Assembly (NCBI RefSeq): GCF_003019035.1
Contig: NZ_CP027447.1
Length of the DNA stretch: 64,000 bases
Source: Escherichia coli
Lineage (GTDB): Bacteria > Pseudomonadota > Gammaproteobacteria > Enterobacterales > Enterobacteriaceae
Direction: 5' to 3' (one strand)
Shown here: piece after piece, positions 14,461-59,059 of the stretch
Layout of the letters: each line of letters begins with the position of its first letter
Position numbering within the stretch: position 1 is the stretch's first letter
The notes under the pieces: generated by a model
Databases searched by the model: none
Told to the model about the DNA's origin: nothing
What the model saw: the letters and a program-made list of their open reading frames with translations, nothing else
Program-made: the position numbers and the translations under genes

Positions 14461-15719
14461 TCAAGATTGGCGTTATCGCCGATGATTTTACCGGCGCGAC
14501 GGATATCGCCAGTTTTCTGGTGGAAAACGGTCTACCAACGGTACAAATTAACGGTGTTCCAACAGGTAAAATGCCGGAAGCAATCGACGCACTGGTGATC
14601 AGCCTGAAAACGCGTTCCTGTCCGGTGGTTGAAGCCACACAGCAATCGCTGGCGGCTCTGAGCTGGTTGCAACAGCAAGGTTGCAAACAGATCTATTTCA
14701 AATACTGCTCTACTTTCGACAGTACGGCGAAAGGTAATATCGGCCCGGTTACCGATGCATTAATGGATGCTCTCGACACGCCGTTTACGGTCTTCTCTCC
14801 GGCCCTGCCGGTCAACGGACGTACGGTTTATCAGGGGTATTTGTTCGTAATGAATCAACTGCTGGCCGAATCCGGGATGCGCCATCACCCGGTAAATCCC
14901 ATGACCGACAGCTATCTTCCTCGTCTGGTTGAAGCGCAATCCACAGGGCGCTGCGGCGTCGTTTCGGCACATGTTTTCGAACAAGGTGTGGATGCCGTTC
15001 GTCAAGAGCTGGCTCGCTTACAGCAAGAGGGCTACCGCTACGCGGTGCTTGATGCGCTGACCGAATACCATCTGGAAATTCAGGGAGAAGCCTTGCGCGA
15101 TGCCCCACTGGTAACGGGCGGTTCTGGTCTGGCGATTGGCCTTGCCCGGCAGTGGGCGCAAGAAAACGGTAACCAGGCTCGCAAAGCAGGGCATCCGCTC
15201 GCTGGGCGCGGCGTAGTGCTCTCCGGTTCATGCTCTCAAATGACCAACCGCCAGGTAGCACATTACCGTCAAATTGCACCAGCCCGTGAAGTTGATGTGG
15301 CACGCTGCCTCTCAATTGAAACTCTGGCCGCTTATGCACACGAACTGGCAGAGTGGGTTCTGGGCCAGGAAAGTGTACTTGCTCCACTGGTTTTTGCCAC
15401 CGCAAGCACTGACGCATTGGCAGCAATTCAACAGCAATACGGTGCACAAAAAGCCAGTCAGGCAGTAGAAACACTGTTTTCTCAACTAGCGGCGCGGTTA
15501 GCAGCGGAAGGCGTGACACGCTTTATTGTCGCAGGCGGTGAGACCTCCGGCGTAGTCACACAGAGCCTGGGAATAAAAGGGTTTCATATTGGCCCAACCA
15601 TTTCCCCTGGCGTGCCGTGGGTAAACGCACTGGATAAGCCTGTCTCACTCGCCCTTAAATCTGGCAACTTCGGTGATGAAGCCTTTTTTTCACGAGCCCA
15701 AAGAGAGTTTTTATCATGA
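14457..15719 (+). CDS. otnK: 3-oxo-tetronate kinase (DUF1537 family, 420 aa)
   Basis: 420 aa, overlapping start/stop with neighbours; corresponds to ygbK. Confidence 0.85.
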   Translation: MIKIGVIADDFTGATDIASFLVENGLPTVQINGVPTGKMPEAIDALVISLKTRSCPVVEATQQSLAALSWLQQQGCKQIYFKYCSTFDSTAKGNIGPVTDALMDALDTPFTVFSPALPVNGRTVYQGYLFVMNQLLAESGMRHHPVNPMTDSYLPRLVEAQSTGRCGVVSAHVFEQGVDAVRQELARLQQEGYRYAVLDALTEYHLEIQGEALRDAPLVTGGSGLAIGLARQWAQENGNQARKAGHPLAGRGVVLSGSCSQMTNRQVAHYRQIAPAREVDVARCLSIETLAAYAHELAEWVLGQESVLAPLVFATASTDALAAIQQQYGAQKASQAVETLFSQLAARLAAEGVTRFIVAGGETSGVVTQSLGIKGFHIGPTISPGVPWVNALDKPVSLALKSGNFGDEAFFSRAQREFLS

Positions 15720-18873: not shown

Positions 18874-20325
18874 TTATTGACGTGCGGCCAGCATAGCGGT
18901 CAGTTTTTCAGCCCAGGCTTTGGTTTCCGGTAAATCCACCACCGGCTGACTGTAGTGACCGCGGTTGTCCGGGGCGACAGGCGTGGTGGCGTCGATAATC
19001 AGCTTGTCGGTGATCCCCGCCGGGCTTGAGCCTGGGTCGAGTTCCAGCACGGACATATTCGGCAACTGCACCAAATCCCCTGCCGGGTTCACTTTCGAGG
19101 AGAGCGCCCACATCACCTGCGGCAGGTTGAACGGATCAACGTCTTCATCGACCATAATCACCATCTTCACATAGCCCAGACCGTGCGGCGTGGTCATCGC
19201 ACGGAGGCCCACCGCGCGGGCAAAGCCACCGTAGCGTTTTTTGGTGGAGATAATCGCCAGCAGGCCGTGGGTGTACATGGCGTTTACCGCCTGCACTTCC
19301 GGGAACTCGGCTTTCAGTTGCTGATACAGCGGCACGCAGGTGGCTGGCCCCATCAGGTAGTCGATTTCCGTCCACGGCATCCCGAGATAGAGCGATTCAA
19401 AAATGGGTTTGCTGCGATAAGAGACGTTATCGATGCGCACCACGGTCATGTTGCGCCCGCCGGAGTAGTGCCCGGTAAACTCACCGAACGGCCCTTCGAT
19501 TTCACGTTTACGGCTTTCGATGACACCTTCGAGGATCACTTCTGAACCCCACGGCACATCAAAACCAGTCAGCGGGGCGGTGGCGATCGGGTACGGGCTT
19601 TCACGCAGCGCGCCTGCCATTTCGTACTCGGACTGATCATATTTCAGCGGCGTGGCCCCCATCAGCGTGATGATCGGATCGTTACCGAGGGTGATCGCAA
19701 TCGGCAGATCTTCACCGCGCTCTTCCGCTTTATGCAGATGCAGGGCGATATCGTGCATCGGCACCGGTTGCAGGCCGAGCTTACGTTTGCCCTTCACTTC
19801 CATGCGGTAGATACCGACGTTCTGCTTGCCGAAGTTATCCGGATCAAGCGGATCGCGGGAAACCACGCACGCTTTGTCGAGATAGAAACCGCCATCGCCA
19901 TCGTTTAAACGAAACAGCGGCAGGATATCGAACAGGTTGATCTCGTCTCCATCGACGGTGTTCTGCGCCCAGGCTGGATTGGCTCGGCGTTCCGGGGCAA
20001 TCGGGAAGTTGTCCCAGCGGCGGATAAACTCATCGATCTGTTTTTTAACCGGGGTATTTGGCGGCAGGCCGAGGGAAATCGCGTGGTTCTGCCAGGAACC
20101 GATGGTGTTCATCGCCACGCGGGCATCGGTAAAGCCGCGAATATTATCAAACCACAGCGCTGGCGCGCCGTCGCCGATACGCCCGGTGGCGTTGGCTGCG
20201 GCTGCCAGATCCGGTTCTGCGTTCACCTCTTCGCTGATTTTCAGCAATTGCCCATGGTCGTCGAGCGCCCTACCAGGCCATCGGCGTAACCGGCACGGAT
20301 ACCGGCGAGCGTTTTCATACTGCAC
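18874..20325 (-). CDS. UbiD-family (prenyl-FMN dependent) decarboxylase, EcdC/KpdC-like; N-terminal ~18 codons are non-homologous read-through from a deletion junction, start codon uncertain
   Basis: ~465 residues of UbiD-family sequence; ORF begins at GTG 20325 inside the upstream UbiX-like fragment. Confidence 0.7.
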   Translation of the reverse strand: MQYENARRYPCRLRRWPGRALDDHGQLLKISEEVNAEPDLAAAANATGRIGDGAPALWFDNIRGFTDARVAMNTIGSWQNHAISLGLPPNTPVKKQIDEFIRRWDNFPIAPERRANPAWAQNTVDGDEINLFDILPLFRLNDGDGGFYLDKACVVSRDPLDPDNFGKQNVGIYRMEVKGKRKLGLQPVPMHDIALHLHKAEERGEDLPIAITLGNDPIITLMGATPLKYDQSEYEMAGALRESPYPIATAPLTGFDVPWGSEVILEGVIESRKREIEGPFGEFTGHYSGGRNMTVVRIDNVSYRSKPIFESLYLGMPWTEIDYLMGPATCVPLYQQLKAEFPEVQAVNAMYTHGLLAIISTKKRYGGFARAVGLRAMTTPHGLGYVKMVIMVDEDVDPFNLPQVMWALSSKVNPAGDLVQLPNMSVLELDPGSSPAGITDKLIIDATTPVAPDNRGHYSQPVVDLPETKAWAEKLTAMLAARQ

Positions 20326-22307: not shown

Positions 22308-23447
22308 TTATCGCTGCGGCAAATAACGCAGCGGGTTTACGGATTTCCCCTTGTAACGAATTTCAAAATGCAAGCGTGTTGAACTGGTTCCGGTGCTACC
22401 CATGGTTGCTATTTTTTGCCCCGCCTTCACTTCTTGTTGTTCCCGGACCAGCATTGTGTCGTTATGGGCGTAGGCACTCAGGTAATCATCATTATGTTTG
22501 ATGATAATCAGATTACCGTAGCCGCGCAGCGCGTTACCGGCATAAACAACGCGGCCATCTGCAGTCGCGATAATTGCCTGTCCTTTGCTGCCTGCGATAT
22601 CAATCCCCTTGTTGCCCCCCTCAGAAGCGCCAAAGGTTTCGATCACTTTGCCCTCAGTCGGCCAGCGCCAGGTGGAGATAGGCGTACTGGTTGATGTACT
22701 GCTGACAGTCGGCTCGGTTGTGCTTGCTGTTGGTACCGTTACAGGCGCTGTGACCGTGGTCGCAGTTGGCTTGTTGTTCGGCAACATTTTGTTAGCACTC
22801 TGTTCACCCGAAGACTCAGAATACGTAATTGTCGGTTGCGACGCAACAGCAACGGTGGAATTTTGTGCAGGCTTGATCACAACTCCTTGCTCTGCTGCGT
22901 CGGCCTGGGTAATGGCATTTCCGCCAGTGATTGGCGTACCGGAAGCATTCCCCACCTGTAAGGTCTGACCGACGTTCAGCGCGTATGGTGCCTGAATATT
23001 GTTGCGCTGAGCAAGGTCACGGAAATCGTTGCCAGTAATCCAGGCGATATAGAAAAGTGTGTCGCCTTTTTTCACTGTATAGGTACTGCCGCTATAACTG
23101 CCTTTCGGAATGTTCCCATACTGACGGTTATAGACGATGCGTCCGTTTTCCATCTGTACCGGCTGCTGAGCTACTGGCTGCACCGGCTGGATTTGCGGTT
23201 GTTGAGTGGCCTGAATTTGTGGCTGCTGTACCGGCTGAATTTGCGGTTGCTGCGCTGTAGACGTCGTCCCCATTTTCGGCGGCGGCGTAATCAACATACC
23301 AGAATTGGTATTTGCAGGCGCATTGCCATTAACGGAGCTGACCGGGGCCGGTGGATTTGAAGTGTCAGAACAGCCTGCCAGCCATAGCGAAACCAGTGAC
23401 AAAGCCGCAATGCGGCGAACGGTGAATTTTGGGCTTCCCGCGCTCAT
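22308..23447 (-). CDS. nlpD: Murein hydrolase activator lipoprotein NlpD (LysM + LytM/M23 domains, 379 aa)
   Basis: Lipobox LAGC, LysM, C-terminal M23-like domain. Confidence 0.95.
23154..23252 (-). repeat. In-frame imperfect tandem repeat inside nlpD encoding QQPQIQ(P/A)(V/T) units
   Basis: Three ~24-27-bp repeats visible in DNA and protein. Confidence 0.6.
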
Positions 23448-28080: not shown

Positions 28081-28686
28081 TCAGGATCTGATAATATCGT
28101 TCTGTCTCAACAGATCTAATAATTGCTGTACCAAATTTGTTACTAATTGTTCACCATTGAGATGAATTTCTGCCGATTCAGGCGCTTCGTAAACGGAATC
28201 TATTCCCGTAAAGTTGCGCAGTTCACCGGCACGCGCTTTCTTATATAAGCCTTTTGGATCGCGGGCTTCGCAAATCGCCAGCGGTGTATCGACAAACACT
28301 TCGATAAAGCGCCCTTCTCCTACGCGTTCGCGAACCATCTGGCGTTCGGCGCGGTGTGGCGAGATAAATGCGGTCAGCACCACCAGTCCGGCTTCAACCA
28401 TCAAATTCGCCACTTCACCGACGCGACGGATATTTTCTTTACGATCGGCATCGCTAAAACCGAGATCGCTGCATAATCCGTGGCGAACATTGTCGCCATC
28501 CAGCAGATACGTACTGACGCCAAGTTTATGTAACGCCTCCTCCAGCGCCCCCGCGACGGTTGATTTACCGGAACCAGAGAGGCCGGTAAACCACAGCACA
28601 ACACCACGATGACCGTGGTGCTGTTCGCGTTGTTGCGGAGTTACTGGGTGGCTATGCCAGACGACGTTTTCGTCATGCAGCGCCAT
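28081..28686 (-). CDS. cysC: Adenylylsulfate kinase CysC (201 aa)
   Basis: P-loop GLSGSGKST. Confidence 0.96.
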
Positions 28687-30113
28687 TATTTATCTCCCAG
28701 TAAATCGCGCGCACCCCAATGCGGGAAATGGCGGCGAACCAGGGCATTCAATTCCAGTTCGAATGCACTGAATTGAGATGGCGCAGCAGTTGCCTGGCTA
28801 ACTGGCTCGTGCACCATACCGGCACCTACGGTCACATTGCTCAGGCGATCGATAAAAATCAGCCCACCGGTCACCGGATTTTGCTGATAACGATCTAACA
28901 CCAGTGGCTCGTCAAAAGTGAGATCCACCAGGCCGATGCCGTTCAGCGGCAGGTTTTCAACTTCGCGTTGGGTAAGGTTATTGATATCAACCTGATAACG
29001 AATGCCATCAACACGAGCACGCGTCTTCTTACCGGCAATTTTGATGTCGTAACTCTGGCCCGGGGAAAGCGGCTGTTCCGCCATCCATACCACATCCACC
29101 GACGCGCTCTGCACAGCCGGTAACGCTTCGTCTGCCGCCAGCAGCAGATCGCCACGGCTGATGTCGATTTCATCCGTCAGCACCAGGGTGATCGCTTCTC
29201 CGGCAAAGGCTTCTTCGCGATCACCATCAAAAGTCACGATCCGCGCGACGTTTGATTCCACACCAGAGGGCAGCACTTTTACACGTTGCCCGACTTCCAC
29301 GCGACCGGATGCCAGCGTTCCGGCGTAGCCACGAAAATCGAGATTCGGACGGTTAACGTACTGCACCGGGAAGCGCATTGGCTGAGCATCCACCACTCGC
29401 TGGATCTCCACGGTTTCCAGCACTTCGAGCAGTGTCGGACCGCTGTACCACGGCATACTTTCACTTTGCGAAGCCACGTTGTCGCCTTCCAGTGCGGAGA
29501 GCGGCACAAAGCGGATATCCAGATTACCCGGCAGCTGCCCGGCAAAAGTCAGATAATCTTCACGAATACGGGTGAACGTCTCTTCACTGTAATCCACCAG
29601 ATCCATTTTGTTGATCGCCACGACCAGATGTTTGATCCCCAACAGTGTGGAGATAAAACTGTGACGACGGGTTTGATCGAGCACGCCTTTACGGGCATCG
29701 ATCAGTAAGATCGCCAGTTCACATGTCGATGCGCCAGTCGCCATATTGCGGGTGTACTGCTCGTGCCCCGGGGTGTCGGCGATAATAAATTTACGCTTCT
29801 CGGTAGAGAAATAGCGGTAGGCCACATCAATAGTGATGCCCTGTTCGCGCTCAGCTTGCAGGCCGTCCACCAGCAGTGCCAGATCCAGCTTTTCGCCCTG
29901 GGTGCCGTGACGCTTACTGTCGTTATGCAGCGATGAGAGCTGATCTTCGTAGATTTGGCGGGTATCGTGTAGCAGGCGACCAATCAGGGTACTTTTGCCG
30001 TCATCGACGCTACCACAGGTCAGAAAACGCAGCAGGCTTTTATGTTGTTGCGCAATCATCCAGGCTTCGACGCCGCCTTCATTGGCGATTTGTTGTGCAA
30101 GTGCGGTGTTCAT
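28686..30113 (-). CDS. cysN: Sulfate adenylyltransferase subunit 1 CysN (GTPase, 475 aa)
   Basis: GTP-binding motifs [18 protein letters not shown]. Confidence 0.96.
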
Positions 30114-30114
30114 C

Positions 30115-31023
30115 TTAAAAATACCCCTGACGTTTTTTCAGCTCCATAGACCCCGCCTGGTCGCGGTCAATCACGCGGCCCTGACGTTCACTGGTGGTGG
30201 AAACCAGCATCTCTTCGATGATCTCCGGCAGTGTTTGTGCATTTGACTCCACCGCACCGGTCAGCGGCCAGCAGCCCAGCGTACGGAAACGCACCATCCG
30301 TTTTTTAATCACTTCGCCCGGTTGCAGGTCGATACGGTTGTCATCAATCATCATCAACATACCGTCGCGTTCCAGAACCGGACGTTCCGCAGCGAGATAC
30401 AGCGGCACAATGTCGATATTTTCCAGCCAGATGTATTGCCAGATATCCTGCTCGGTCCAGTTAGAGAGCGGGAAGACGCGGATGCTTTCGCCTTTGTTAA
30501 TTTGCCCGTTGTAGTTGTGCCACAGCTCCGGGCGCTGATTTTTCGGATCCCAGCGATGGAAGCGGTCACGGAAAGAGTAGATTCGCTCTTTAGCGCGGGA
30601 TTTCTCTTCGTCACGACGTGCGCCACCGAAGGCGGCATCAAAACCGTATTTGTTCAGCGCCTGTTTCAGGCCTTCAGTTTTCATAATATCGGTATGTTTC
30701 GCGCTGCCGTGTACGAATGGATTAATCCCCATCGCCACGCCTTCCGGGTTTTTATGCACCAGCAGCTCGCAGCCGTAGGCTTTCGCCGTACGATCGCGGA
30801 ACTCATACATCTCGCGGAATTTCCAGCCGGTATCGACATGCAGCAACGGGAAAGGCAGCGTACCTGGATAAAACGCCTTGCGCGCCAGATGCAGCATGAC
30901 GCTGGAATCTTTACCGATAGAGTAGAGCATCACCGGATTTGAGAATTCTGCAGCCACCTCGCGAATAATGTGGATGCTTTCCGCCTCCAGTTGCCGCAGG
31001 TGAGTAAGTCGTTTTTGATCCAT
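30115..31023 (-). CDS. cysD: Sulfate adenylyltransferase subunit 2 CysD (302 aa)
   Basis: PAPS reductase-like fold, 302 aa. Confidence 0.96.
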
Positions 31024-31275
31024 AACCGTTCCTTTGCAATACCGCTATTTTCTTGCCATCAGATGTTTCGACTATAGGGAGCGCAGGAGAACGAATGAAA
31101 TTACCAATTAGAATGAGTAGTTCCTTAACGGAATAACGATTTGGCAAAGCTAATATCAAAAAGTGCTTAAGGCACCGGATTTCGGGCGTTTAGGAAGATT
31201 TGAAATTGTTTTAGCGCATCGGCAGTTTCATACTATGGCGGTAAAAAAAATTTGCATGGTATTTAAGGACTCACT

Positions 31276-32313
31276 ATGTTTTCCGCATTGCGCCACCGTA
31301 CCGCTGCCCTGGCGCTCGGCGTATGCTTTATTCTCCCCGTACACGCCTCGTCACCTAAACCTGGCGATTTTGCTAATACCCAGGCACGACATATTGCTAC
31401 TTTCTTTCCGGGACGCATGACCGGAACTCCAGCAGAAATGTTATCTGCCGATTATATTCGCCAACAGTTTCAGCAAATGGGTTATCGCAGTGATATTCGG
31501 ACATTTAATAGTCGGTATATTTATACCGCCCGCGATAATCGCAAGAGCTGGCATAACGTGACGGGAAGTACGGTGATTGCCGCTCATGAAGGCAAAGCGC
31601 CGCAGCAGATCATCATTATGGCGCATCTGGATACTTACGCCCCGCTGAGCGATGCTGACGCCGATGCCAATCTCGGCGGGCTGACGTTACAAGGAATGGA
31701 TGATAACGCCGCAGGTTTAGGTGTCATGCTGGAATTGGCAGAACGCCTGAAAAATACGCCTACCGAGTATGGTATTCGATTTGTGGCGACCAGCGGCGAA
31801 GAGGAAGGGAAATTAGGCGCTGAGAATTTACTCAAGCGGATGAGTGACTCCGAAAAGAAAAATACACTGCTGGTGATTAATCTCGATAACTTAATTGTTG
31901 GCGATAAATTGTATTTCAACAGCGGTGTAAAAACCCCTGAAGCAGTAAGGAAATTAACGCGCGACAGGGCGCTGGCAATTGCGCGTAGTCATGGAATTGC
32001 CGCAACGACCAATCCGGGTTTGAATAAAAATTATCCGAAAGGCACTGGGTGTTGTAATGACGCAGAAATATTCGACAAAGCGGGCATTGCTGTACTTTCG
32101 GTTGAAGCGACTAACTGGAATCTTGGGAATAAGGATGGTTATCAGCAACGCGCAAAAACAGCCGCATTCCCTGCAGGAAATAGCTGGCATGACGTAAGAC
32201 TGGATAATCAACAACATATTGATAAGGCACTTCCTGGAAGAATAGAACGTCGCTGCCGTGACGTTATGCGGATAATGCTACCTCTGGTGAAGGAGCTGGC
32301 GAAGGCGTCTTGA
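31276..32313 (+). CDS. iap: Alkaline phosphatase isozyme conversion aminopeptidase Iap (M28 family, 345 aa)
   Basis: Signal peptide, M28 metal ligands, position adjacent to CRISPR array. Confidence 0.9.
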   Translation: MFSALRHRTAALALGVCFILPVHASSPKPGDFANTQARHIATFFPGRMTGTPAEMLSADYIRQQFQQMGYRSDIRTFNSRYIYTARDNRKSWHNVTGSTVIAAHEGKAPQQIIIMAHLDTYAPLSDADADANLGGLTLQGMDDNAAGLGVMLELAERLKNTPTEYGIRFVATSGEEEGKLGAENLLKRMSDSEKKNTLLVINLDNLIVGDKLYFNSGVKTPEAVRKLTRDRALAIARSHGIAATTNPGLNKNYPKGTGCCNDAEIFDKAGIAVLSVEATNWNLGNKDGYQQRAKTAAFPAGNSWHDVRLDNQQHIDKALPGRIERRCRDVMRIMLPLVKELAKAS

Positions 32314-32394
32314 TGGGTTTGAAAATGGGAGCTGCGAGTTCTACCGCAGGGGCGGGGAATTCTAAGTGATATCCATCATCGCATCCAGTGCGCC

Positions 32395-33094
32395 CGGTTT
32401 ATCCCCGCTGGCGCGGGGAACACTTGCAGTAGCACTTCAGTTCTGTTTTTGTCACCGGTTTATCCCCGCTGGCGCGGGGAACACGCCTGATAGCGCCTCC
32501 AGCCTTCGCCCTGGTGCGGTTTATCCCCGCTGGCGCGGGGAACACTGCATAGCTTTGGCTTCTTCTTTAACGGACGCCGGTTTATCCCCGCTGGCGCGGG
32601 GAACACAGTACCACTGTTTTTTCTTCGGTGCCCAGCCACGGTTTATCCCCGCTGGCGCGGGGAACACGTTTACATATTTATACCTACACGCTCAATCGAC
32701 GGTTTATCCCCGCTGGCGCGGGGAACACCCGTTTTCGATTGAACAGAAAGATTTCAACACCGGTTTATCCCCGCTGGCGCGGGGAACACAATACAGACCC
32801 GTTGTACGGTTTTTGCGAGCACGGTTTATCCCCGCTGGCGCGGGGAACACTTGGAAATCACCTCCCCGATCTCCGCGCTGTCCGGTTTATCCCCGCTGGC
32901 GCGGGGAACACCCCTCGGCAAAAATGCCTTTTTCCTCGTCGGTCGGTTTATCCCCGCTGGCGCGGGGAACACCACGGGCCAGACGGTAGCAACAATTTTA
33001 CGGCCGGTTTATCCCCGCTGGCGCGGGGAACACCAAAACGGAAGTGCCAGTATTGCCAGAATCACCGGTTTATCCCCGCTGGCGCGGGGAACAC
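32395..33094 (-). CRISPR. CRISPR array 1 (type I-E): 12 identical 29-bp repeats CGGTTTATCCCCGCTGGCGCGGGGAACAC (plus-strand reading), 11 spacers of 32 bp; leader at high-coordinate end
   Basis: Repeat starts at 32395, 32456, 32517, 32578, 32639, 32700, 32761, 32822, 32883, 32944, 33005, 33066; perfect 61-bp periodicity. Confidence 0.98.
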
Positions 33095-33190
33095 ACTAAG
33101 CATACGTATCTGTTTTTAAACAATTTTATTCCACATCAACAATCTACCAACTAAATTCAAACATTTCCTTATTTTTAAAGAACGGGTAAC
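33095..33190 (-). other. CRISPR leader of array 1 (AT-rich, contains CAATCTACCAACT motif shared with array 2 leader)
   Basis: AT-rich sequence between last repeat and cas2 stop; motif recurs downstream of array 2. Confidence 0.6.
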
Positions 33191-34400
<1,210 letters not shown>

Positions 34401-34404
<4 letters not shown>

Positions 34405-35051
34405 GCCTCTGCTCCAGGTTTGATCAGCATCAGACCACAACCGAACGCCCGGCTTTTGCCATACCCCTGACTGAGACGTTGCAGAAATAACCCAGGATCG
34501 GTGACCGTAAGCATCCCCGTATAATCCACGCTACTGAACTGGATCAGTTGCCGGGAGTTTTCCCGCCGCAGTTGCTGTTGTCGGTAGGCATCAACCGAAG
34601 TATCCAGCAGTGTAAAACCGCTTCTCTCCCCCTGCGCTGCCAGCCAGTCCAGCGCCGCCTGTTGTTGATGCAACCAGACATTTCTTCCTTCCGCCTGCCC
34701 CCTCACCTGCCGTTTCGCCTCCATCAGCAGATCGTGGCGCTTACCCGCTTTACAGACTGTTGGATTCGCCCGCAGGTTGAAACAAAGGGATTGTCCGGTA
34801 TGCAGTTCAGGCGCAAATGACCGGCATTCGATGGTGAACGTTTCACTTTCCGCCGGGCGTTCCTGCGACAGGACAAAAAAGCGAAACGCGCCCTGGAGTT
34901 CTTCCCGACGATAAAGAAATTGCCTTTCTTTGCCGCCAGGAAAAAGATCCCACAGCCACTGATGCATCACATATTCACCGCGATCCACCAAATGCAGCAA
35001 CTGCGCAGGCGAAAGCTGACCGGTATGTAAGGTTATTCTTGAGAGGTACAT
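34401..35051 (-). CDS. cas6e: Cas6e (CasE/Cse3) crRNA endoribonuclease
   Basis: ~216 aa starting MYLSRITL, C-terminal G-rich loop GYGKSRAFGCGLM; position in operon. Confidence 0.85.
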
Positions 35052-35779
35052 GGTTCCTCCTTGCTGAGCCACGGCCCCTGATTGACGGTGCGTTCCCCAA
35101 ACAGCCACTGCTGACGATTTAAAGGAACATCCCGGCGGCGTAATATTTTGCTCGAGACCAGGCCATCGTGCTCCCCTTCCCACCAGCATTCATCCTGAAG
35201 TTTCGGGAGTGAGACTTTCAGTTCGTGGAAACGATCCTGATACTGTTGGTATGCGTTACGTAAGGCATCAGACGCGTTACCTTCAAGCAGTAACGGCGCA
35301 AGGGGTAATGCCAGCGGATGGCTTTTTCGCCCCAGATAAAGCGGAAAAGCCGGATGGCGTAAACCTTCCTGCAACTGTTCGAGGCTGTAAGGCGCATCAG
35401 CTGTTGTTGCCACGGCCACCATCCACCAGGCATCGGTGTAGTAGTCGCGCCGGGAGATAATCGCGCTTAGAAGATCAGGGTCGCTCAACTCTTCGCGACG
35501 GCTGAAATAACGCGCTTTACGCACCTCTTTTGGCATCTGGACCGTGTGATAATCCCGTGCCCAGCGCGGGTTACGGCTGGCGCAAACCACCAGTGAATAG
35601 TGGCGATTAAACGCGTTTAAGCATTCGGTGTCATCACGCCGTATCCCTACCCCGGCAGCCAGCAGCCCCAGCAATGCTGAACGCGAAGGCAGTTCATGGG
35701 TATGACGCACCTCACCGGGTGCATCAACGCCCCAGGATGCCATTGGCCCATGAAGCTGAAAAATCAGATATTGGCTCAT
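35033..35779 (-). CDS. cas5: Cas5e (CasD) Cascade subunit
   Basis: 248-aa ORF with Cas5 N-terminal signature LHGPMASWG; operon position. Confidence 0.85.
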   Translation of the reverse strand: MSQYLIFQLHGPMASWGVDAPGEVRHTHELPSRSALLGLLAAGVGIRRDDTECLNAFNRHYSLVVCASRNPRWARDYHTVQMPKEVRKARYFSRREELSDPDLLSAIISRRDYYTDAWWMVAVATTADAPYSLEQLQEGLRHPAFPLYLGRKSHPLALPLAPLLLEGNASDALRNAYQQYQDRFHELKVSLPKLQDECWWEGEHDGLVSSKILRRRDVPLNRQQWLFGERTVNQGPWLSKEEPCTSQE

Positions 35780-35789
35780 AAGCCGCCCC

Positions 35790-36845
35790 TTACGCGCAGA
35801 TAAAGTCCAGCACGTCCTTCATGCTTCCCTGTTTGTTCATCACGTCAAAACTTGCGCATTCGGTCTTCTGTTCGTAAACCGTATTCATGTTTTCGCGAAG
35901 CGTTGTAATACGCTGCACCGCCACATCTAACTGACGTGTGCCATTAATGGGTTCATAGAAAGCCGCCGCCAGAGAACGCGGTTGTTCGGTGCCTTTTTCT
36001 GCCAGCGCCCAGGAGGCGTAGGCACGGCTGGCAAAGCTGTTTTGTTTACCGGTTGGGGAAACTTTAAACGCTGCTTCCGTAAAGGCGCGCAGGGTCTGAT
36101 TAGCTAATGCTTCGTCACCGCCGAGGTTTTCGACCAGCAGATCTTTATCAATGCAGATATAGGTGTAGAACAGCGCAGAACCAAATCCAGTTTCACCAAG
36201 ATGCCCTGCACCAGCATCTTCAGAGGCCTGGCGCAAATCATCAACGGCGGTGAAAAAATCATCTTCGACAATCGTTTCACTGACACCAAATGCATGCGCG
36301 ACCTGGCAGGCGGCTTCAACATTAAATTCGGGTTTATTCGCCAGCATACGACCAAACATAGCGATATCTACCGCCATGCGATCTTTACGTAACAAAGCGA
36401 GATCTTCCTCTTTTGGCGCGCGCTTTTCTTCGGCCAGTTGATGGGCCAGCGCTTTTACGGCGTCAAATTCTGCCGGGCTGATATGGACGAGCTGTTCAGT
36501 TTCGGCGTTAGTGAGCGGATCTTTTGGTTTTTTGTCGTTTTTAGCTTTCCCAAGATAATCCGCAATTTTTGCCGCCCATTCGATGGCTTTTTTCTCTTCG
36601 ATGCCTTTCTCAATCAGGATAGTTGCCGCCTCACGCGCAATACGCCCACTGCGAATACCAATATGGCCCGCCAGTGCCTGTTCAAAAAGTGCAGAAGTGC
36701 GCCACGCACGTTTCAGACTTTGCGAGGAAACGCGCAGACGCGTTGCTCCACCCAGCACCACGGTTTTCGGCGCACCGGTGTCATCACGGTTAAGGTTGGC
36801 TGCAGGGTAAGCGGTTAACAAATGAAGCTGAATAAATGTCGTCAT
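35790..36845 (-). CDS. cas7: Cas7e (CasC/Cse4) Cascade backbone subunit
   Basis: 351 aa, operon position between cse2 and cas5. Confidence 0.85.
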   Translation of the reverse strand: MTTFIQLHLLTAYPAANLNRDDTGAPKTVVLGGATRLRVSSQSLKRAWRTSALFEQALAGHIGIRSGRIAREAATILIEKGIEEKKAIEWAAKIADYLGKAKNDKKPKDPLTNAETEQLVHISPAEFDAVKALAHQLAEEKRAPKEEDLALLRKDRMAVDIAMFGRMLANKPEFNVEAACQVAHAFGVSETIVEDDFFTAVDDLRQASEDAGAGHLGETGFGSALFYTYICIDKDLLVENLGGDEALANQTLRAFTEAAFKVSPTGKQNSFASRAYASWALAEKGTEQPRSLAAAFYEPINGTRQLDVAVQRITTLRENMNTVYEQKTECASFDVMNKQGSMKDVLDFICA

Positions 36846-36859
36846 GAGATAGTCCTTTA

Positions 36860-37396
36860 TTAATTTTGTTCGTTATCGGCGTCGCCAGCCTGGTAATATT
36901 CCAGCGCCCAGCGGATACGGATAAATTCTGTTGGCCGCTGCTGACGGCGGTGATGGTTGAGCAGGTCGTCACTCTCCTGGCACCAGCGGAAAATATCGTC
37001 TGCCAAAGAGATAAGATTGACGGAACCGTTTAATAATTTGACCGCGCGACGTAACTGGCGCAGTAAATCATCCGGCGTTTTGACTGCCGACAGGCGAGTA
37101 AAACGCCCCTCAGACATTACCGCCGCCAACTGCGCGGCAAAAGGCTGCCGTTCATCAATGGCTTTTACATTGGCGGCAACGGCGGCAACCAGCGCCAGTG
37201 CGGTAAAACGCCACTCCTGTGATTCAATTTTCCACAACGTGTGGGTCTGCATCAGCAGAGAACGAAAACCTTCTGACAGACAAACATCATTAACCGTTGT
37301 GCTACGCCGCAGACTGGCACGATTGCCGCGTTTTTCCTGCAACTCTTCGAGCCATTTACGCAGCGTGGCTTTGTGCTCCTCTTTTACAATACTCAT
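36860..37396 (-). CDS. cse2: Cse2 (CasB) Cascade small subunit
   Basis: 178-aa helical ORF, operon position. Confidence 0.82.
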   Translation of the reverse strand: MSIVKEEHKATLRKWLEELQEKRGNRASLRRSTTVNDVCLSEGFRSLLMQTHTLWKIESQEWRFTALALVAAVAANVKAIDERQPFAAQLAAVMSEGRFTRLSAVKTPDDLLRQLRRAVKLLNGSVNLISLADDIFRWCQESDDLLNHHRRQQRPTEFIRIRWALEYYQAGDADNEQN

Positions 37397-38961
37397 TCAG
37401 CAGCCTCCTGCTTTTTCTCCCTGGCGGCTTTAGCACTTTGCTTCTCCGCCGATGTTGTAAAATATTTCTTGCGCGCGGTCATGACGCGTTTCAAATCAAC
37501 GGGCTCATAAGGATTGGTGAATACCCGCTCGTCAAAATCCTGACGCGCGAATAACCACATTTCCTTTTGCCATTTGCTGAGTAATTCATCCGGCTCCTGA
37601 CCTTCTTCAATTTGACGCACTAACCTCAGGAAGCGATGCTGAGTTTTGTTCCAAAAGTCGATATCCACAAAACTGAAATCACCCCGTGCACCTTTTGGAT
37701 CGGAGAACCATGCTTCTTTCAATGCACTCCGTAACAGACTTAGAATCCGTGAAGCCGTTTGCGCAGCCAGCCGCAGCTTTGGTATCTGGCCTTCTTTTTT
37801 ATTGAGCAGCAGCGGGAAATGGTGTTCGTACCAACAGCGCGCTTTCATGTTGTCAAAATCATAACCAAATCCCCATAGGCCCACTTTTGCCTGTTTCAGA
37901 CTGCTGGCATTAAAGAGTTTCACCACCAGCGCGGGAAGTTCCGTATTGTTTTCTGATTTACCCGTTTCGATAAGGCCTAACCAGTCGCGCCAGATTAAAC
38001 CGCCCGGTTGTGGTTTAACGGAGTAAAACTCGCCACCCTCTTTAAGTGGTACACGGTAAGGCGTTAAGGGATGCTGCCACATGGCATAATTGGCACCATA
38101 ATTTTTGGTCGTCATCAGGCTCAGGAGCGCGTCGTTCTGCTCGTCGCAAATATCGCAGTTGCCGACTGTCGTGGTATTAAAATCAATACGTATACGCCGC
38201 GGCATTCCCCAGTACGCCTGGAGTTTATTGACCTGATCATGGGTTACCACCGCACCGGCCAGTTCGCTGGTACGCGTCGGGCCTAGCCAGGGGAAAATCA
38301 GATCGTCAAATTTTTTGGGTAGCGGTAAGTCGGCTTCATCCTGCGGCATCACGTTGAGCCACAGTTTGCGCCACAAGGGTGTTTGTTGATTGCCCTGATA
38401 TTCCTGTAATTCAATGAGAGTCGTCATCGGCCCACCGCCGCGTAAACCGGTGCGATAGCCTTTGCCGCCCGCGGGTGCATTCAACTGTAAAGAGAACAAG
38501 GCCAATGCTAAGCAATGGGGGCACAGATATTCCGTTACACCCCGCTTGATAAAATGGTCTTTATTAAACTTCGTCGTTTGAAAGCCGGGAATCTCAGGCA
38601 GTAGCGAAGCGACCGGAACTTTATCTCCCGTGAGCGCCTCAAAATCCTGCATAAATGAAGATGAATCAGGCCCAAACTGGAAAGCATGTTCTAAAGACAG
38701 CAATGCTTCTCGTAGCTTTTCAGCTTCCAGTCCGTCTTCCCAGATATCATCCCAACGACGATGATCTTTTGGCGCGAAGCTGGTTTGTAGTAGTCCCAGC
38801 AAAAACTGCCAGGCCGCACCTTGTAAATCTGCTCGCGGTGCGGCGATATCGACAACATTCTCATCAGCCAGATCGACTGATGCCAGCTTGCCTGTCGTTC
38901 CGTCTTTGAAACGAACAGGCAACCACGGGGTTGTCAGAAGTGAAAACGAGTTCATACGCAT
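37393..38961 (-). CDS. cse1: Cse1 (CasA) Cascade large subunit
   Basis: 522 aa, operon position directly after cas3; called from size and position (not the K-12 sequence variant as recalled). Confidence 0.82.
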   Translation of the reverse strand: MRMNSFSLLTTPWLPVRFKDGTTGKLASVDLADENVVDIAAPRADLQGAAWQFLLGLLQTSFAPKDHRRWDDIWEDGLEAEKLREALLSLEHAFQFGPDSSSFMQDFEALTGDKVPVASLLPEIPGFQTTKFNKDHFIKRGVTEYLCPHCLALALFSLQLNAPAGGKGYRTGLRGGGPMTTLIELQEYQGNQQTPLWRKLWLNVMPQDEADLPLPKKFDDLIFPWLGPTRTSELAGAVVTHDQVNKLQAYWGMPRRIRIDFNTTTVGNCDICDEQNDALLSLMTTKNYGANYAMWQHPLTPYRVPLKEGGEFYSVKPQPGGLIWRDWLGLIETGKSENNTELPALVVKLFNASSLKQAKVGLWGFGYDFDNMKARCWYEHHFPLLLNKKEGQIPKLRLAAQTASRILSLLRSALKEAWFSDPKGARGDFSFVDIDFWNKTQHRFLRLVRQIEEGQEPDELLSKWQKEMWLFARQDFDERVFTNPYEPVDLKRVMTARKKYFTTSAEKQSAKAAREKKQEAAE

Positions 38962-39044
38962 CCTCTCGTAAAAAAGACCATCCCTGGTCGGTTGTCCATC
39001 CTTTTTTGTGTATCAACTATTCAGAGAATCCTGTCGCAGACATC

Positions 39045-41744
39045 TCAACCAACCTTGCCAATCAATCCCTCCGTAGCCGAATACCCACAACTTTCGTCAT
39101 CGGTGACTAAAATCACGTTTGCCATCTCCGGATCATGCCGCTGTTCAACGCACCACTGCCTGAACGCATCCCCTTCCAGTAAAGAAAACTCATCCCGATG
39201 TTTTTTCCACCAGCTTCGGCGCACTCTGACAACGCTCATTTCCCATGCGTGTGCACCTGTGGCATAAGGCTTCACCACACCGTCAATACAGGTAGCCAGC
39301 CACAGGGAAACAGACTCTTCAGCCAGACGTGTCGACAGTTTTTCCGGGAGGTAATCGTTGATATTGGCGGCATAGCCGGGCCTGAAGTTCAGTACAAACT
39401 TTTTAGCCATTGCGCGATCGCAGTAATATTTGCCCACTTGCTCCTGCTCGCTGCGGGCAAACCCTTCCGGCATTACTACGTCCTCACCGTAGACTGATTC
39501 AATCAGAAGCCGGGCTGAGTGTGGCATCTGAATAGCACCTTGCTCACGCAGCACACGCTGCGTCAGCCAGATTCGCCCATGATCGGGATAGACAAATGCA
39601 CTGTTACGCATGGCACTGCCAAACCATTCGTCACCCGGAGAGTCGTCCCAGACGGGGGCCAGAATCAGCAATTCAGGAGGGTGACGCTCGTCTTTACCGT
39701 CACGCTTTAACTGGCCATTCATATCGCGGATATGTCGCTGTAATCGCCCTGCTCGCTGGATCAGTAAATCAACAGGGGCAAAGTCGGAAATCATTTCGTC
39801 CAGGTCGCAGTCAACGCTCTGCTCCAGGACTTGAGTACAAATGAGGACTTTTCCGGCACGCTGTGAACAGTCTTCTTTACCAAAGCGTGCCAGCGTCTCC
39901 GTTTCAATTCGCTGGCGATCGCTAAAAGCAAAGCGGCTATGAAAAAGTGAAAGGCTGGAAGCAGGAATGACGCCGCGGGCAAGTAACTGACGATGAACCT
40001 GGATGGCGTCATCGACAGAATTTCGGATCCAGGCGATACATTTCCCCTGACTTACCGCCGATTCGATACGCGCAATACACTCTTGTTCGCTATGAAGCCA
40101 ACCCACACTCACGCTGCGCTCAACGTCTTTGCGCGTCGCTACCCGGTGTGAATGCACATCGGATTTCGTAACGTGCGTCAGCCAGGGGTAATCATCCTTT
40201 TCCAGGAACGGAGCTTCTTGCTGGCCCTCTATACCACGCGCAAAGGCAGCAACGAGTTTGTCGCGCTGCTGTTGAGATAACGTGGCAGAAAGCAAAATGA
40301 CGCTGTTTCCGCCACGCGCCTGCCGCTCGATCAGCCCTTCAAGAATGCATGACATGTAAGCGTCACAGGCATGGATCTCATCAGCCAGCAGGATTTTGTT
40401 ACTCAGTCCCAGAAGCCGCAGATTATTATGTTTGAACGGCATCACAGCCATCATCGCCTGATCCAGCGTGCCGACGCCAATTTCAGCCAGTAGCGCCTTC
40501 TTGTTACTGTCGGCAAACCAGGCCGCACATCCCTGACTGCACGTTTGTTCATCCGGTTCTTCTGACCCGACTAAATCACCGGACCAGAGTGATTCATTAA
40601 AGCGGTCCATTAATGTTCGGGCACTGTGTGCCAGCACCAGGCTGGGGCGGGACTCTGGCGAATAGAAAGCAAGCCAGGTTTTGACCAGTCGATCGTACAT
40701 GGCATTGGCCGTTGCCATTGTTGGCAGGCCAAAAAACAAACCCTGCGCTTTCCCCGCAGCCATCAACCTGTGCGCCAGGATAAGCGCCGCTTCTGTTTTA
40801 CCTGCGCCGGTTACATCCTCCAGAATAAATAACTGTGGTCCCGGCTGGCTGATATCCAGATCCAGCACCTTTTGCTGTAGCGGTGTCGGATTCTCAATAA
40901 AAGGAAACAGCGTATTAATTCCGGTGAAAGGCGCGCTTTCTGCTTTTGGAGGAAAGACGGTTAAGGCGTTTTGAGCCTGAACTAAAGTTTTCTGCCAGTA
41001 ATCTTCAATATCCATTGTCTGTGCGACGCGTGGAAAATATCGCGTTGACGATCCCGTCCAGTCTGCAAGTACGACGGTTGCAGAGATATACCAGGAAAGT
41101 TGTTTTATAAGTTCAACGCCCTCGTCATCATCCCAGAATGTGGGGATCTCTATGAGCGGAAACAGTACCTTGATTGCAAGGAGAAAATCTCGTGCGGCAC
41201 CTTTGTCTTCAGGCAGAAAATTATCCAGTTCATCCATACGCTCAGGGGGTCGACCATGATGCCCGGTAGTCATGGGCATCCACATCTCCATCACCCGTTT
41301 AAGTTTGCGCGGAGAGAGTGAAGATGAAGGAAGCAACTCCTGACATTCACTTAAATAATGGTTCCACAACCAGTAGCCCAGCGTTGAATGAGAGATCTTT
41401 TCGTAATTCTTTCTTGCGCCTTCCGGAACCTTGAGTTGTGGGTGCAGGTAAAGTTGCTGAAAAGAGCGGGCAAATTTTCCAATATCGTGCCAGCACAGCA
41501 GCCAGGCGAAAAATTGTGCTGCCAGCTCCGTGTCAGCGAAACCTAATTGACGAAAATAGTCAGCCAGTCCGAAGCAATTGCTTTTAACCATTAAATAGCC
41601 CATCGCGGCTACATCCAGCGAATGCCAGCAAAGAAGGTGATAGTCGTCACCACCCTCTTTCTCGCCGCGTCGGGTTTTTCCCCAGAAATCAAAAAAAGTC
41701 ACAATATTTTTATCCTTCAGTAAACTTAAAGGATATTTACGCAT
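39045..41744 (-). CDS. cas3: Cas3 HD nuclease/SF2 helicase (type I signature, 899 aa)
   Basis: N-terminal HD domain, DEAD-box helicase motifs (GAGKTE, DEIH). Confidence 0.92.
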   Translation of the reverse strand: MRKYPLSLLKDKNIVTFFDFWGKTRRGEKEGGDDYHLLCWHSLDVAAMGYLMVKSNCFGLADYFRQLGFADTELAAQFFAWLLCWHDIGKFARSFQQLYLHPQLKVPEGARKNYEKISHSTLGYWLWNHYLSECQELLPSSSLSPRKLKRVMEMWMPMTTGHHGRPPERMDELDNFLPEDKGAARDFLLAIKVLFPLIEIPTFWDDDEGVELIKQLSWYISATVVLADWTGSSTRYFPRVAQTMDIEDYWQKTLVQAQNALTVFPPKAESAPFTGINTLFPFIENPTPLQQKVLDLDISQPGPQLFILEDVTGAGKTEAALILAHRLMAAGKAQGLFFGLPTMATANAMYDRLVKTWLAFYSPESRPSLVLAHSARTLMDRFNESLWSGDLVGSEEPDEQTCSQGCAAWFADSNKKALLAEIGVGTLDQAMMAVMPFKHNNLRLLGLSNKILLADEIHACDAYMSCILEGLIERQARGGNSVILLSATLSQQQRDKLVAAFARGIEGQQEAPFLEKDDYPWLTHVTKSDVHSHRVATRKDVERSVSVGWLHSEQECIARIESAVSQGKCIAWIRNSVDDAIQVHRQLLARGVIPASSLSLFHSRFAFSDRQRIETETLARFGKEDCSQRAGKVLICTQVLEQSVDCDLDEMISDFAPVDLLIQRAGRLQRHIRDMNGQLKRDGKDERHPPELLILAPVWDDSPGDEWFGSAMRNSAFVYPDHGRIWLTQRVLREQGAIQMPHSARLLIESVYGEDVVMPEGFARSEQEQVGKYYCDRAMAKKFVLNFRPGYAANINDYLPEKLSTRLAEESVSLWLATCIDGVVKPYATGAHAWEMSVVRVRRSWWKKHRDEFSLLEGDAFRQWCVEQRHDPEMANVILVTDDESCGYSATEGLIGKVG

Positions 41745-41938: not shown

Positions 41939-42091
41939 CTACTTCTTCGATTCGTAAGCGAGAACCGCCTTAAACTCCATACCACGTTCTCTGATACTCA
42001 ACTCACACAACGAGTCGCCTACCATCAGCGTGAATCCCAGTACTGTAAAACACAGCACTATGATTGCCACAAGGGCATATTTTGTCAGCAT
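41939..42091 (-). CDS. hokX: Hok/Gef-family type I toxin (50 aa), likely hokX of the hokX-sokX locus
   Basis: Own translation [52 protein letters not shown] helix + conserved LCE...AYES Hok signature; GGAGG RBS; below 60-aa cutoff so absent from ORF track. Confidence 0.8.
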
Positions 42092-42355
42092 GTCTTGCCT
42101 CCCTGCAAAGAAGAGACTAACATTCGAATTGTTTGGGTTCGAACGCTGGCCTCAGGTTGATAGAAATATCGCCTGGGGCTTTTGTCCATCTGGAACCTCG
42201 CGAATGCTTAACGCCAGACAGCCTCAAGCACCCAACGCCATTCTATACCTGTTAATTCTTCCAACGACGTTCACGTTTAAAATCAGGAATGCTGCTCGCA
42301 AAATAAAAACGCCCCCATCATTTCTGACAGAGGCGTTTAATTTATCCGGCAATAT

Positions 42356-50556: not shown

Positions 50557-51338
50557 GGCTGCATCCTTTGGCGTAAATAGTCCTGCCATAGCTTTTGCGC
50601 TTTTTCTGCTACCGTTTGCCCATCAATCAGCGTCGCTCCGCGTTGTTGCTCTGCTCTTGCCAGTTGCAGACACAGCATCGCTGGCGATTCGGCAGCAACA
50701 GTTTTACGGATAATTTCTGCTTTCCCCGCCGCCATTCGCTGACGCATTCCCGGTACTGGCAAGGCCACTTCACCACACTGACGCACGGCAATCACCGCAG
50801 GCAAGCGAACCCGGCAACAGCGCAGCCCGTTTTCAGTACGCTGTTCAAGGGTGATAAACGGCGCGTCGAGAGTAAAACGCTCCACCTGGGTGAAGCAGGG
50901 CCAGCCCAGCATTTCCGCCAGCAAAAATGGCGTTTGCCCATTCTGCCCTTCGCTGCTTTGGCAGCCGGTAATGATCAGATCCAGCGGATTCTGACGCTGC
51001 CATTCGGCAATATGGCGAGCGACAAATTCCGGCGCAAAGCGCAGATCTGCCACCGTCTCCAGCAATACAGCGTCCTCAAACCCAAGAGCCATGAGATAGC
51101 GCAGCCAGTGCAACGCCCGTTCATCCCCCATGCTCAACGCGGTTAAAGACATCGGCGTACCGTTTTTTCTCTGCGCTAACAGAAGCGCGGCAGCCGCCTG
51201 TTCATCAGCACCGAGTAAACTTCGCAGCAGCGAAACATCCGGTCCGCAATTACCCTGAGCCGCCACCTGCCACTCTTTTTCTGCCAGCATTCCGGCATCC
51301 GGTTCGGCTTTAAACGCTAACAGAATGTTCATTCGCAC
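50553..51338 (-). CDS. ygcR: Electron transfer flavoprotein beta subunit-like (FixA family)
   Basis: ETF beta-like ORF overlapping ygcQ start; exact start uncertain. Confidence 0.83.
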   Translation of the reverse strand: MRMNILLAFKAEPDAGMLAEKEWQVAAQGNCGPDVSLLRSLLGADEQAAAALLLAQRKNGTPMSLTALSMGDERALHWLRYLMALGFEDAVLLETVADLRFAPEFVARHIAEWQRQNPLDLIITGCQSSEGQNGQTPFLLAEMLGWPCFTQVERFTLDAPFITLEQRTENGLRCCRVRLPAVIAVRQCGEVALPVPGMRQRMAAGKAEIIRKTVAAESPAMLCLQLARAEQQRGATLIDGQTVAEKAQKLWQDYLRQRMQP

Positions 51339-58786: not shown

Positions 58787-59059
58787 TGGTTTATCCCCGC
58801 TGGTGCGGGGAACTCTTGGCATAGGCGCTATAGCGGCGCTCTGTGTCCGGTTTATCCCCGCTGGCACGGGGAACTCGTTGGTGCCGTTGTTGTAACCGTA
58901 GAAACCGACGGTTTATCCCCGCTGACGTGGGGAACTCGCAGGTCAACACGGGCGATAAACCCGGCTGACCGGTTTATCCCCGCTGACGTGGGGAACTCGA
59001 TAAGCAGATTGCAGAACTACAGGCGAAGGACGGTTTATCCCCGCTGACGTGGGGAACTC
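58787..59059 (-). CRISPR. CRISPR array 2 (type I-E repeats, 5 repeats / 4 spacers of 32 bp); repeat variants ending AACTC; leader at high-coordinate end
   Basis: Repeats at 58787, 58848, 58909, 58970, 59031; R1 TGG…GCTGGTGCGGGG, R2 …GCTGGCACGGGG, R3-R5 …GCTGACGTGGGG. Confidence 0.93.

Follow-up and report, generated by a model that had tools for sequence, protein, structure and literature searches.

The stretch of Escherichia coli DNA that was analysed (64,000 nucleotides, hereafter the window) carried a CRISPR locus in the gene order cysN and cysD (minus strand), iap (plus strand), the array, the leader, cas2-cas1-cas6e-cas5e-cas7e-cse2-cse1-cas3 (minus strand), hok/sok, cysH and cysI. The CRISPR array proper was located at positions 32395 to 33094 on the minus strand and contained 12 identical 29-nt repeats and 11 spacers. 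The repeat, which reads CGGTTTATCCCCGCTGGCGCGGGGAACAC on the plus strand and GTGTTCCCCGCGCCAGCGGGGATAAACCG in its minus-strand (transcript) form, was present in 12 copies without a single mismatch, with one start per 61 nt from 32395, and it had no match in 100 dinucleotide-preserving shuffles of the window. The 11 spacers were each unique and each 32 nt long, and every spacer-repeat unit measured 61 nt. These results agreed with the original prediction, made from the sequence alone, in its coordinates, its 61-bp periodicity and the uniformity of its repeats, and all 11 spacer sequences that it listed were exact. The order in which it gave them, leader-distal to leader-proximal on the plus strand, was also right, since the AT-rich leader and cas2 lie on the 33095 side.

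Folded as RNA, the repeat formed a 7-bp hairpin (-15.2 kcal/mol, z = -3.2), the form expected of Cas6e substrates. Three plus-strand open reading frames across the array (32366-32989, 32628-33119 and 32851-33099) were rejected as genes, as they are mechanical products of the repeat sequence. Rfam was uninformative for the repeat, because no CRISPR repeat family was among its matches in either the gathering search of the whole window or the E-value search of 32250-33250. The only returns were sok and two sub-threshold 'Chlorobi-1' chance matches.

The stop codon of iap was found at 32313, and 81 nt lie between it and the first perfect repeat. This stretch aligned nearly end to end with its 82-nt counterpart in K-12, with four substitutions and one single-base gap. 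In K-12 the counterpart includes the final spacer of the array and its well-known degenerate final repeat. A degenerate terminal ('anchor') repeat of 28 nt, CGAGTTCTACCGCAGGGGCGGGGAATTC, was located in the window at 32335-32362 (minus strand), with its start 60 nt upstream of the first perfect repeat. Aligned with one gap, it agreed with the repeat consensus at 20 of 29 positions, and it was homologous to the iap-proximal degenerate repeat of K-12. Next to it, at 32363-32394 (minus strand), was an anchor spacer of 32 nt, TAAGTGATATCCATCATCGCATCCAGTGCGCC, which is kept across E. coli CRISPR-I loci; it was identical at 31 of 32 positions to the terminal spacer of K-12 (CAAGTGATATCC...) and had a 100% match in another E. 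coli chromosome filed among plasmid records. Almendros et al. 2014 (PMC3903273) gave the name 'anchor repeat' to the degenerated iap-proximal repeat, and reported that most strains with part of the CRISPR-I locus keep it together with one specific spacer, irrespective of the cas-E variant.

The claim that the array has no degenerate terminal repeat was thus wrong, and with the anchor repeat and spacer directly upstream of the first perfect repeat, the sequence places the true start of the array at about 32335. As RNA, the degenerate repeat formed a stem of only 4 bp (-7.0 kcal/mol, against -15.2 kcal/mol for the perfect repeat), from which we infer that no normal crRNA is made from the anchor spacer. 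The unit at 32335-32394 would be an ancient terminus of the array that probably cannot be processed.

The anchor unit also bears on the spacer count. In K-12, 12 spacers lie between recognisable repeats, and the usual count of 13 is reached by including the anchor unit. Counted like for like, the window and K-12 have 12 and 13 spacers with the anchor included, or 11 and 12 with the anchor left out. The earlier comparison of 11 spacers with 13 had therefore counted the two arrays differently, while its statement that the spacer set differs from that of K-12 was upheld: no window spacer resembled any K-12 spacer, and the best pair agreed at 13 of 32 positions.

The leader (33095-33190, minus strand) was of the L1 type, with a length of 96 nt and a GC content of 28%. 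Its conserved blocks aligned with the leaders of the iap arrays of K-12 and strain 2EC1, and by its sequence it is clearly a different allele from the K-12 leader. A consensus scan gave a promoter-like site, TTGGTA-16-TAAAAT, at 33123-33150 (minus strand), directed into the array and inside one of the blocks aligned to the K-12 leader; it is a putative promoter, identified by consensus match only.

Eight cas genes followed, all on the minus strand. These were cas2e (33191-33484; TIGR01873, 133 bits), cas1e (33481-34404; TIGR03638, 380.6 bits), cas6e or casE (34401-35051; TIGR01907, 288 bits), cas5e or casD (35033-35779; TIGR01868, 158 bits), cas7e or casC (35790-36845; TIGR01869, 448 bits), cse2 or casB (36860-37396; TIGR02548, 105 bits), cse1 or casA (37393-38955; TIGR02547, 605 bits) and cas3 (39045-41744; HD and helicase domain models above their cut-offs). 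All eight were full length and each scored above the NCBIfam type I-E cut-offs, in agreement with the annotation of the near-identical genome of strain SCU-301. Cas2 was 86% identical to K-12 Cas2. The K-12-specific models PRK09693 (cse1) and PRK09694 (cas3) both stayed below cut-off. Rfam placed a sok RNA at 42076-42233, and the Hok gene is annotated in SCU-301, so that hok/sok lies between cas3 and cysH. The position of hok/sok and the sub-threshold scores of the two K-12-specific models indicate that the cas genes belong to the non-K-12 cas-E1 variant; the locus combined non-E2 cas-E genes and a leader unlike that of K-12 with hok/sok beside cas3.

Comparison with 5,426 complete E. coli genomes showed that the cysN-cysD-iap segment was 100% identical to SCU-301 (NZ_CP051751.1) and at most 98.9% identical to any other genome. 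SCU-301 is a commensal isolated from a healthy student and belongs to phylogroup F, ST967 (PMC11251922). The features described above identify the system as type I-E: the repeat is K-12-like (28/29) and forms the 7-bp hairpin with 61-nt spacing, the leader is AT-rich and homologous to that of K-12, the cas operon is complete with eight intact genes, and the locus occupies the iap-cas2 position with its anchor unit. The reading adopted here, with a probability of about 0.95, is that the locus is the E. coli CRISPR-I (CRISPR2.1) array, type I-E, cas-E1 variant, of a strain of the SCU-301 lineage (phylogroup F, ST967).

For the targets of the spacers, whole-array BLAST against phages and plasmids was swamped by repeat-repeat matches to arrays in mis-filed records, and thus spacer-only queries were used, in which the repeats were removed and the spacers concatenated. 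The collections searched were a phage collection of 2.3 Gb, a plasmid collection of 7.3 Gb and the complete E. coli genomes (28 Gb). At E<=1, no credible match to any window spacer was obtained in the phage collection, and none was obtained in the plasmid collection at the same threshold. Protospacers beside an AAG-type PAM in a mobile element were found for two of the 11 spacers, both in the complete E. coli genomes. A CTT flank on the plus strand corresponds to AAG on the crRNA-sense strand, and AAG is the canonical type I-E PAM.

Spacer 3 (32546-32577, minus strand) matched at 30 of 32 positions a 'phage baseplate protein' gene in myovirus-type prophages of strains STEC384 and STEC379 (BLAST E = 7e-4). 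The protospacer was followed by CTT, that is, an AAG PAM, its two mismatches fell at crRNA positions 15 and 27 with the seed intact, and the target protein matched PHROG tail families. Spacer 10 (32973-33004, minus strand) matched at 29 of 32 positions a gene in the tail module of a prophage of strain JNE151685 (BLAST E = 3e-2). Here the protospacer was followed by CAT, corresponding to an ATG PAM, the three mismatches were at crRNA positions 13, 24 and 30, outside the seed, and the target protein matched PHROG 2048 'tail protein' at E = 6e-67. Both accepted targets were therefore imperfect, with two mismatches for spacer 3 and three for spacer 10. Because each match combines a functional PAM with a site in a prophage structural gene, in addition to its E-value, it is unlikely that these prophage matches arose by chance.

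The remaining nine spacers had no protospacer in the phage, plasmid and complete E. coli genome collections. In the complete genomes, spacers 1, 2, 5, 6, 7 and 9 had no match outside the array of SCU-301 itself. Exact 23-26-mers of spacers 3, 6, 7, 8, 9, 10 and 11 gave no match in IMG/VR; as a positive control, the scan recovered an additional spacer of SCU-301, described below, in three viral contigs. Exact 23-26-mers of spacers 8 and 11 had no match among the GTDB species-representative genomes, and a metagenome scan with spacer 11 returned CRISPR arrays only and no protospacer. Two candidate plasmid targets were discarded. Spacer 4 resembled a DnaJ-domain gene of MobP1 plasmids from E. coli and Pantoea (25-26 of 32 positions, E 0.4-3), with the four PAM-proximal bases mismatched and a flank of CAA or CAG, and this resemblance at most hints at a related plasmid gene. 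A match to a Martelella plasmid straddled the point where spacers 9 and 10 had been joined in the query and was an artefact of the concatenation.

The original prediction had left the targets of all spacers unassigned and proposed a BLAST search with a check for PAMs. After that search, its position no longer applied to spacers 3 and 10, nor fully to spacer 8, for which an ATG PAM was inferred as described below. It stood for the other eight of the 11 spacers, which had no target in any collection searched and no inferred PAM. Dion et al. 2024 (PMC10910852) reported that E. coli CRISPR1 spacers match prophages in bacterial genomes and not phage isolates, and that 41% of spacers were unassigned; the pattern found here, with matches to prophages and not to isolates, agrees with that report.

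The earlier failure to see a convincing self-target in the window was borne out, as the best off-array match reached 24 of 32 positions, with a mismatched seed and no PAM. This match, of spacer 10 to 50679-50710 within a ygcR homologue, had its PAM-proximal base mismatched and a TAA flank and was attributed to chance; random 32-mers reached 19-22 of 32 positions. In the near-clonal SCU-301 chromosome, two complete-genome searches at E<=10 with the 11 spacers returned no match but the array itself.

Identical, near-identical or overlapping counterparts of spacers 3, 8, 10 and 11 were found in the arrays of other strains. Spacer 11 (33034-33065, minus strand), which as the leader-proximal spacer is the newest in the array, recurred with 100% identity in strains SCU-172 and MS 21-1, where it is part of CRISPR2.3, the second I-E array, located at ygcE-queE. 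It also fell within an annotated CRISPR of four further complete genomes and within arrays on six metagenome contigs, five of which had the same neighbouring spacers as SCU-172. A variant of spacer 10 (30 of 32 positions) is the leader-proximal CRISPR2.3 spacer of strain EC42405. For spacer 3, a variant (29 of 32 positions) was present in CRISPR2.3 of BL21(DE3), REL606, strain C and many others, and the 90-95% identity band of the search of complete E. coli genomes held 190 records. The BL21 version matched the STEC384 prophage protospacer at 31 of 32 positions. Spacer 8 (32851-32882, minus strand) shared a 23-nt overlap, at a 9-nt offset, with spacer 16 of the iap array of strain 2EC1, and the composite of the two continues with CAT, which gave the inferred ATG PAM of spacer 8. 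Judged from these sequences, different strains appear to have sampled the same or overlapping protospacers, sometimes into another array. We read the counterparts as a probable sign that a limited number of temperate elements has been met repeatedly.

The window and SCU-301 were compared over the full 64 kb and differed by only one SNP (at 13813), two small indels and one 61-nt spacer-repeat unit. The indels were a deletion of 315 bp from the window near position 20269 and one extra copy of the 8-bp TCCATCCT in SCU-301 at 38994, between cas3 and cse1. The SCU-301 array carried the same 11 spacers in the same order, with identical anchor, leader and cas genes, and it differed in having a 12th spacer, TGATGTCGCTGGCGCTCCGTATGGGGCGCACA, in the leader-proximal position between spacer 11 and the leader. 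This extra spacer was present as a spacer in no other complete genome, and SCU-301 had no second copy of it and hence no self-target. It matched the tail-assembly-chaperone (gpG/gpT frameshift) region of phage HK97 at 29 of 32 positions, with matches of similar strength in HK75, mEp234 and many other HK97-family phages. Prophages in 894 E. coli genomes gave similar matches, located in the gene 'tail assembly protein T'. Its best protospacer, in an IMG/VR viral contig, matched at 31 of 32 positions and was followed by CTT (AAG PAM).

Short reads are easily mis-assembled where identical repeats follow one another in an array, and differences in spacer number could in principle reflect collapse or expansion of 61-nt units. 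The spacers are unique, however, and the units would be distinguishable in reads longer than about 90 nt; moreover, the SCU-301 genome is complete and closed. An independent assembly, the NCBI draft GCA_032174115.2, was 100% identical to window positions 28276-35313 (about 7 kb), the 11-spacer array included, which makes the 11-spacer allele reproducible. The assembly collection had the exact Iap protein indexed in 271 blocks. An assembly artefact is thus considered highly improbable as the source of the differences.

A third allele was found on metagenome contig OKOL01002220.1 (locus L020), a contig of the kind that might itself be mis-assembled. Its array ran from the anchor through spacers 4-11 and the extra spacer to the same leader. 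Since spacers 1-3 have been lost from this allele, which has the extra spacer, deletion does occur in this array lineage, and a loss of the extra spacer in the lineage of the window, by recombination between the two leader-proximal repeats, stays a live alternative. Such a deletion would be made easy by the identity of the repeats, and the extra-spacer allele comes from two independent sources (SCU-301 and L020), whereas the other allele comes from the window and one assembly, possibly of the same strain. Acquisition, on the other hand, is always leader-proximal, while a random deletion of a single unit would fall at that position only about once in 12, and the best protospacer of the extra spacer has an AAG PAM, as that of a genuine new acquisition would. 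Loss is therefore regarded as rather unlikely, though less so than misassembly.

As to the direction of the difference, a recent spacer gain in the SCU-301 branch is favoured, with odds between a little above even and fairly good. The fuller reading, that the window and SCU-301 form a near-clonal before-and-after pair recording one recent, polarised acquisition by a native cas-E1 system against an HK97-like temperate phage, is held with somewhat better than even confidence. Adaptation would then have been active very recently in the SCU-301 lineage, with the window most likely representing the state before the extra spacer was acquired.

Following the pathway established for type I-E systems, minus-strand transcription through the array would start from a promoter within the leader (33095-33190), and Cas6e would cut the transcript at the base of each repeat hairpin to release 61-nt crRNAs. 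In each crRNA the 32-nt spacer would be flanked by an 8-nt handle at the 5' end (AUAAACCG) and by a 21-nt hairpin handle at the 3' end. Cascade (Cse1, Cse2, Cas7, Cas5 and Cas6e) loaded with a crRNA would recognise a matching protospacer beside an AAG-type PAM, and Cas3 would degrade the Cascade-bound target DNA. Cas1-Cas2 would insert new spacers where the leader meets the first repeat. On this view the 11 spacers would record earlier encounters, for the most part with temperate phages, and two of them match prophage tail or baseplate genes.

Whether such a pathway operates in the host bears on a further explanation, in which the array and cas genes are intact but transcriptionally repressed by H-NS, as in K-12, the array confers no immunity at present, and the spacers are old memories without a live role. 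The I-E system of K-12 is silenced by H-NS under laboratory conditions, and E. coli I-E systems are reported to be repressed in the laboratory, with arrays that stay stable for years (PMC3903273, PMC10910852). By analogy, H-NS may also silence the system of the window. The leader and the cas3-cse1 region were AT-rich, and with nine of 11 spacers lacking a detectable target and none having a perfect one, the spacer content fits this explanation. Against it, the eight intact cas genes and 12 identical repeats gave no sign of decay, and conclusions drawn from K-12, an E2 system, may not apply to E1 systems (PMC3903273). The near-clonal relative (one SNP in 64 kb) differs by a single leader-proximal spacer whose phage target has an AAG PAM, which is the signature of recent Cas1-Cas2 activity. 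The intact genes, the uniform repeats and the one-spacer difference from the clone-mate together argue against a decayed relic. A silent relic is accordingly a real but minority possibility, and the reading of a recently adapting system is preferred.

The existence of the array teaches nothing new, as this is a textbook locus. The near-clonal pair that differs by an anti-HK97 leader-proximal spacer is the only point of some note, and a mild one: a difference of one leader-proximal spacer offers a small piece of natural evidence on whether E. coli I-E systems still acquire spacers in the wild. If the before-and-after reading is true, a supposedly silent E. coli I-E system would be adapting within the human gut over the time in which clones diversify. 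A recent view sees temperate phages as the main targets of E. coli CRISPR, and the prophage tail genes matched here, with their correct PAMs, are consistent with it. The spacer set is also a precise lineage marker, as spacers 1, 2, 4, 5, 6, 7 and 9 were found only in SCU-301 among the 5,426 complete E. coli genomes.

With respect to known systems, the locus shares with the cas-E1/L1 CRISPR-I arrangement of Almendros et al. 2014 (PMC3903273) its non-K-12 cas-E genes, non-K-12 leader, hok/sok and anchor repeat with spacer; no difference was detected between the locus and the description in that paper. With the CRISPR-I (CRISPR2.1) array of K-12 MG1655 it has in common the chromosomal position (cysD, iap, array, leader, cas2, cas1 ... 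cas3, cysH), the 29-nt repeat family (28 of 29 positions identical), the 32-nt spacers, the anchor repeat and spacer, and a homologous leader. The two arrays differ in the start of the transcript repeat, which is GTG in the window and GAG in K-12, and in repeat uniformity, all 12 repeats being identical in the window whereas K-12 has three variant distal repeats. Only the anchor spacer is common to both, and the window carries E1 cas genes with hok/sok beside cas3. The array is thus an already known system, the textbook E. coli CRISPR-I locus.

Comparison of the main array (type I-E, CRISPR-I/CRISPR2.1, 32395-33094, minus strand) with related loci showed two sister alleles, one in the near-clonal Escherichia coli strain SCU-301 (NZ_CP051751.1) and the other on the metagenome contig OKOL01002220.1. 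With spacers numbered from the leader-distal end, the SCU-301 array contained spacers 1-11 and one additional leader-proximal spacer (record positions 1190288-1190319), whose target in HK97-like phages was the tail assembly chaperone gene, and the metagenome array carried spacers 4-11 followed by an extra spacer identical to that of SCU-301. The E. coli assembly GCA_016684935.1 encoded an identical Iap protein, yet its 14-spacer array was wholly different; the repeat was that of the window array and the leader was nearly identical. The content of the array is therefore not coupled to the allele of the flanking gene. Three plus-strand ORFs of 82-207 aa crossed the array (32366-32989, 32628-33119, and 32851-33099; region 32366-33119); these are mechanical by-products of the array's repeats, and their annotation as genes is unwarranted.

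Further differences from SCU-301 were found outside the array. The 8-bp motif TCCATCCT in the cas3-cse1 intergenic region (38987-38994) was present as a single copy in the window and as a tandem pair in SCU-301. It lies upstream of cse1, where the promoter of the Cascade operon is expected, and could influence cas expression. A stretch of 315 bp of SCU-301, bordered by GCGCC microhomology, was absent from the window at about 20259-20269. Two hydroxyarylic acid decarboxylase genes are cut short by its absence, that for subunit B at the 3' end and that for subunit C at the 5' end; the gap is either a true deletion or an assembly difference. At 14526-14572 and 23177-23252, Tandem Repeats Finder called short tandem repeats, both with a period of 24 nt.

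A hok/sok toxin-antitoxin module was located between cas3 and cysH (41939-42233), with an Rfam sok score of 111 bits and Hok annotated in SCU-301. This module occurs in every CRISPR-I arrangement except those with K-12-type cas-E2 genes (PMC3903273).

A second type I-E array, CRISPR2.3, was found at the queE-ygcE locus (58787-59059), with 5 repeats and 4 spacers. All five repeats were mutated, and the three leader-proximal copies had two substitutions in common, G to A in the hairpin stem and C to T in the loop. The hairpin carrying these changes was predicted to be weaker (-9.7 kcal/mol) than that of the perfect repeat of the main array (-15.2 kcal/mol). The CRISPR2.3 leader was conserved between the window and BL21.
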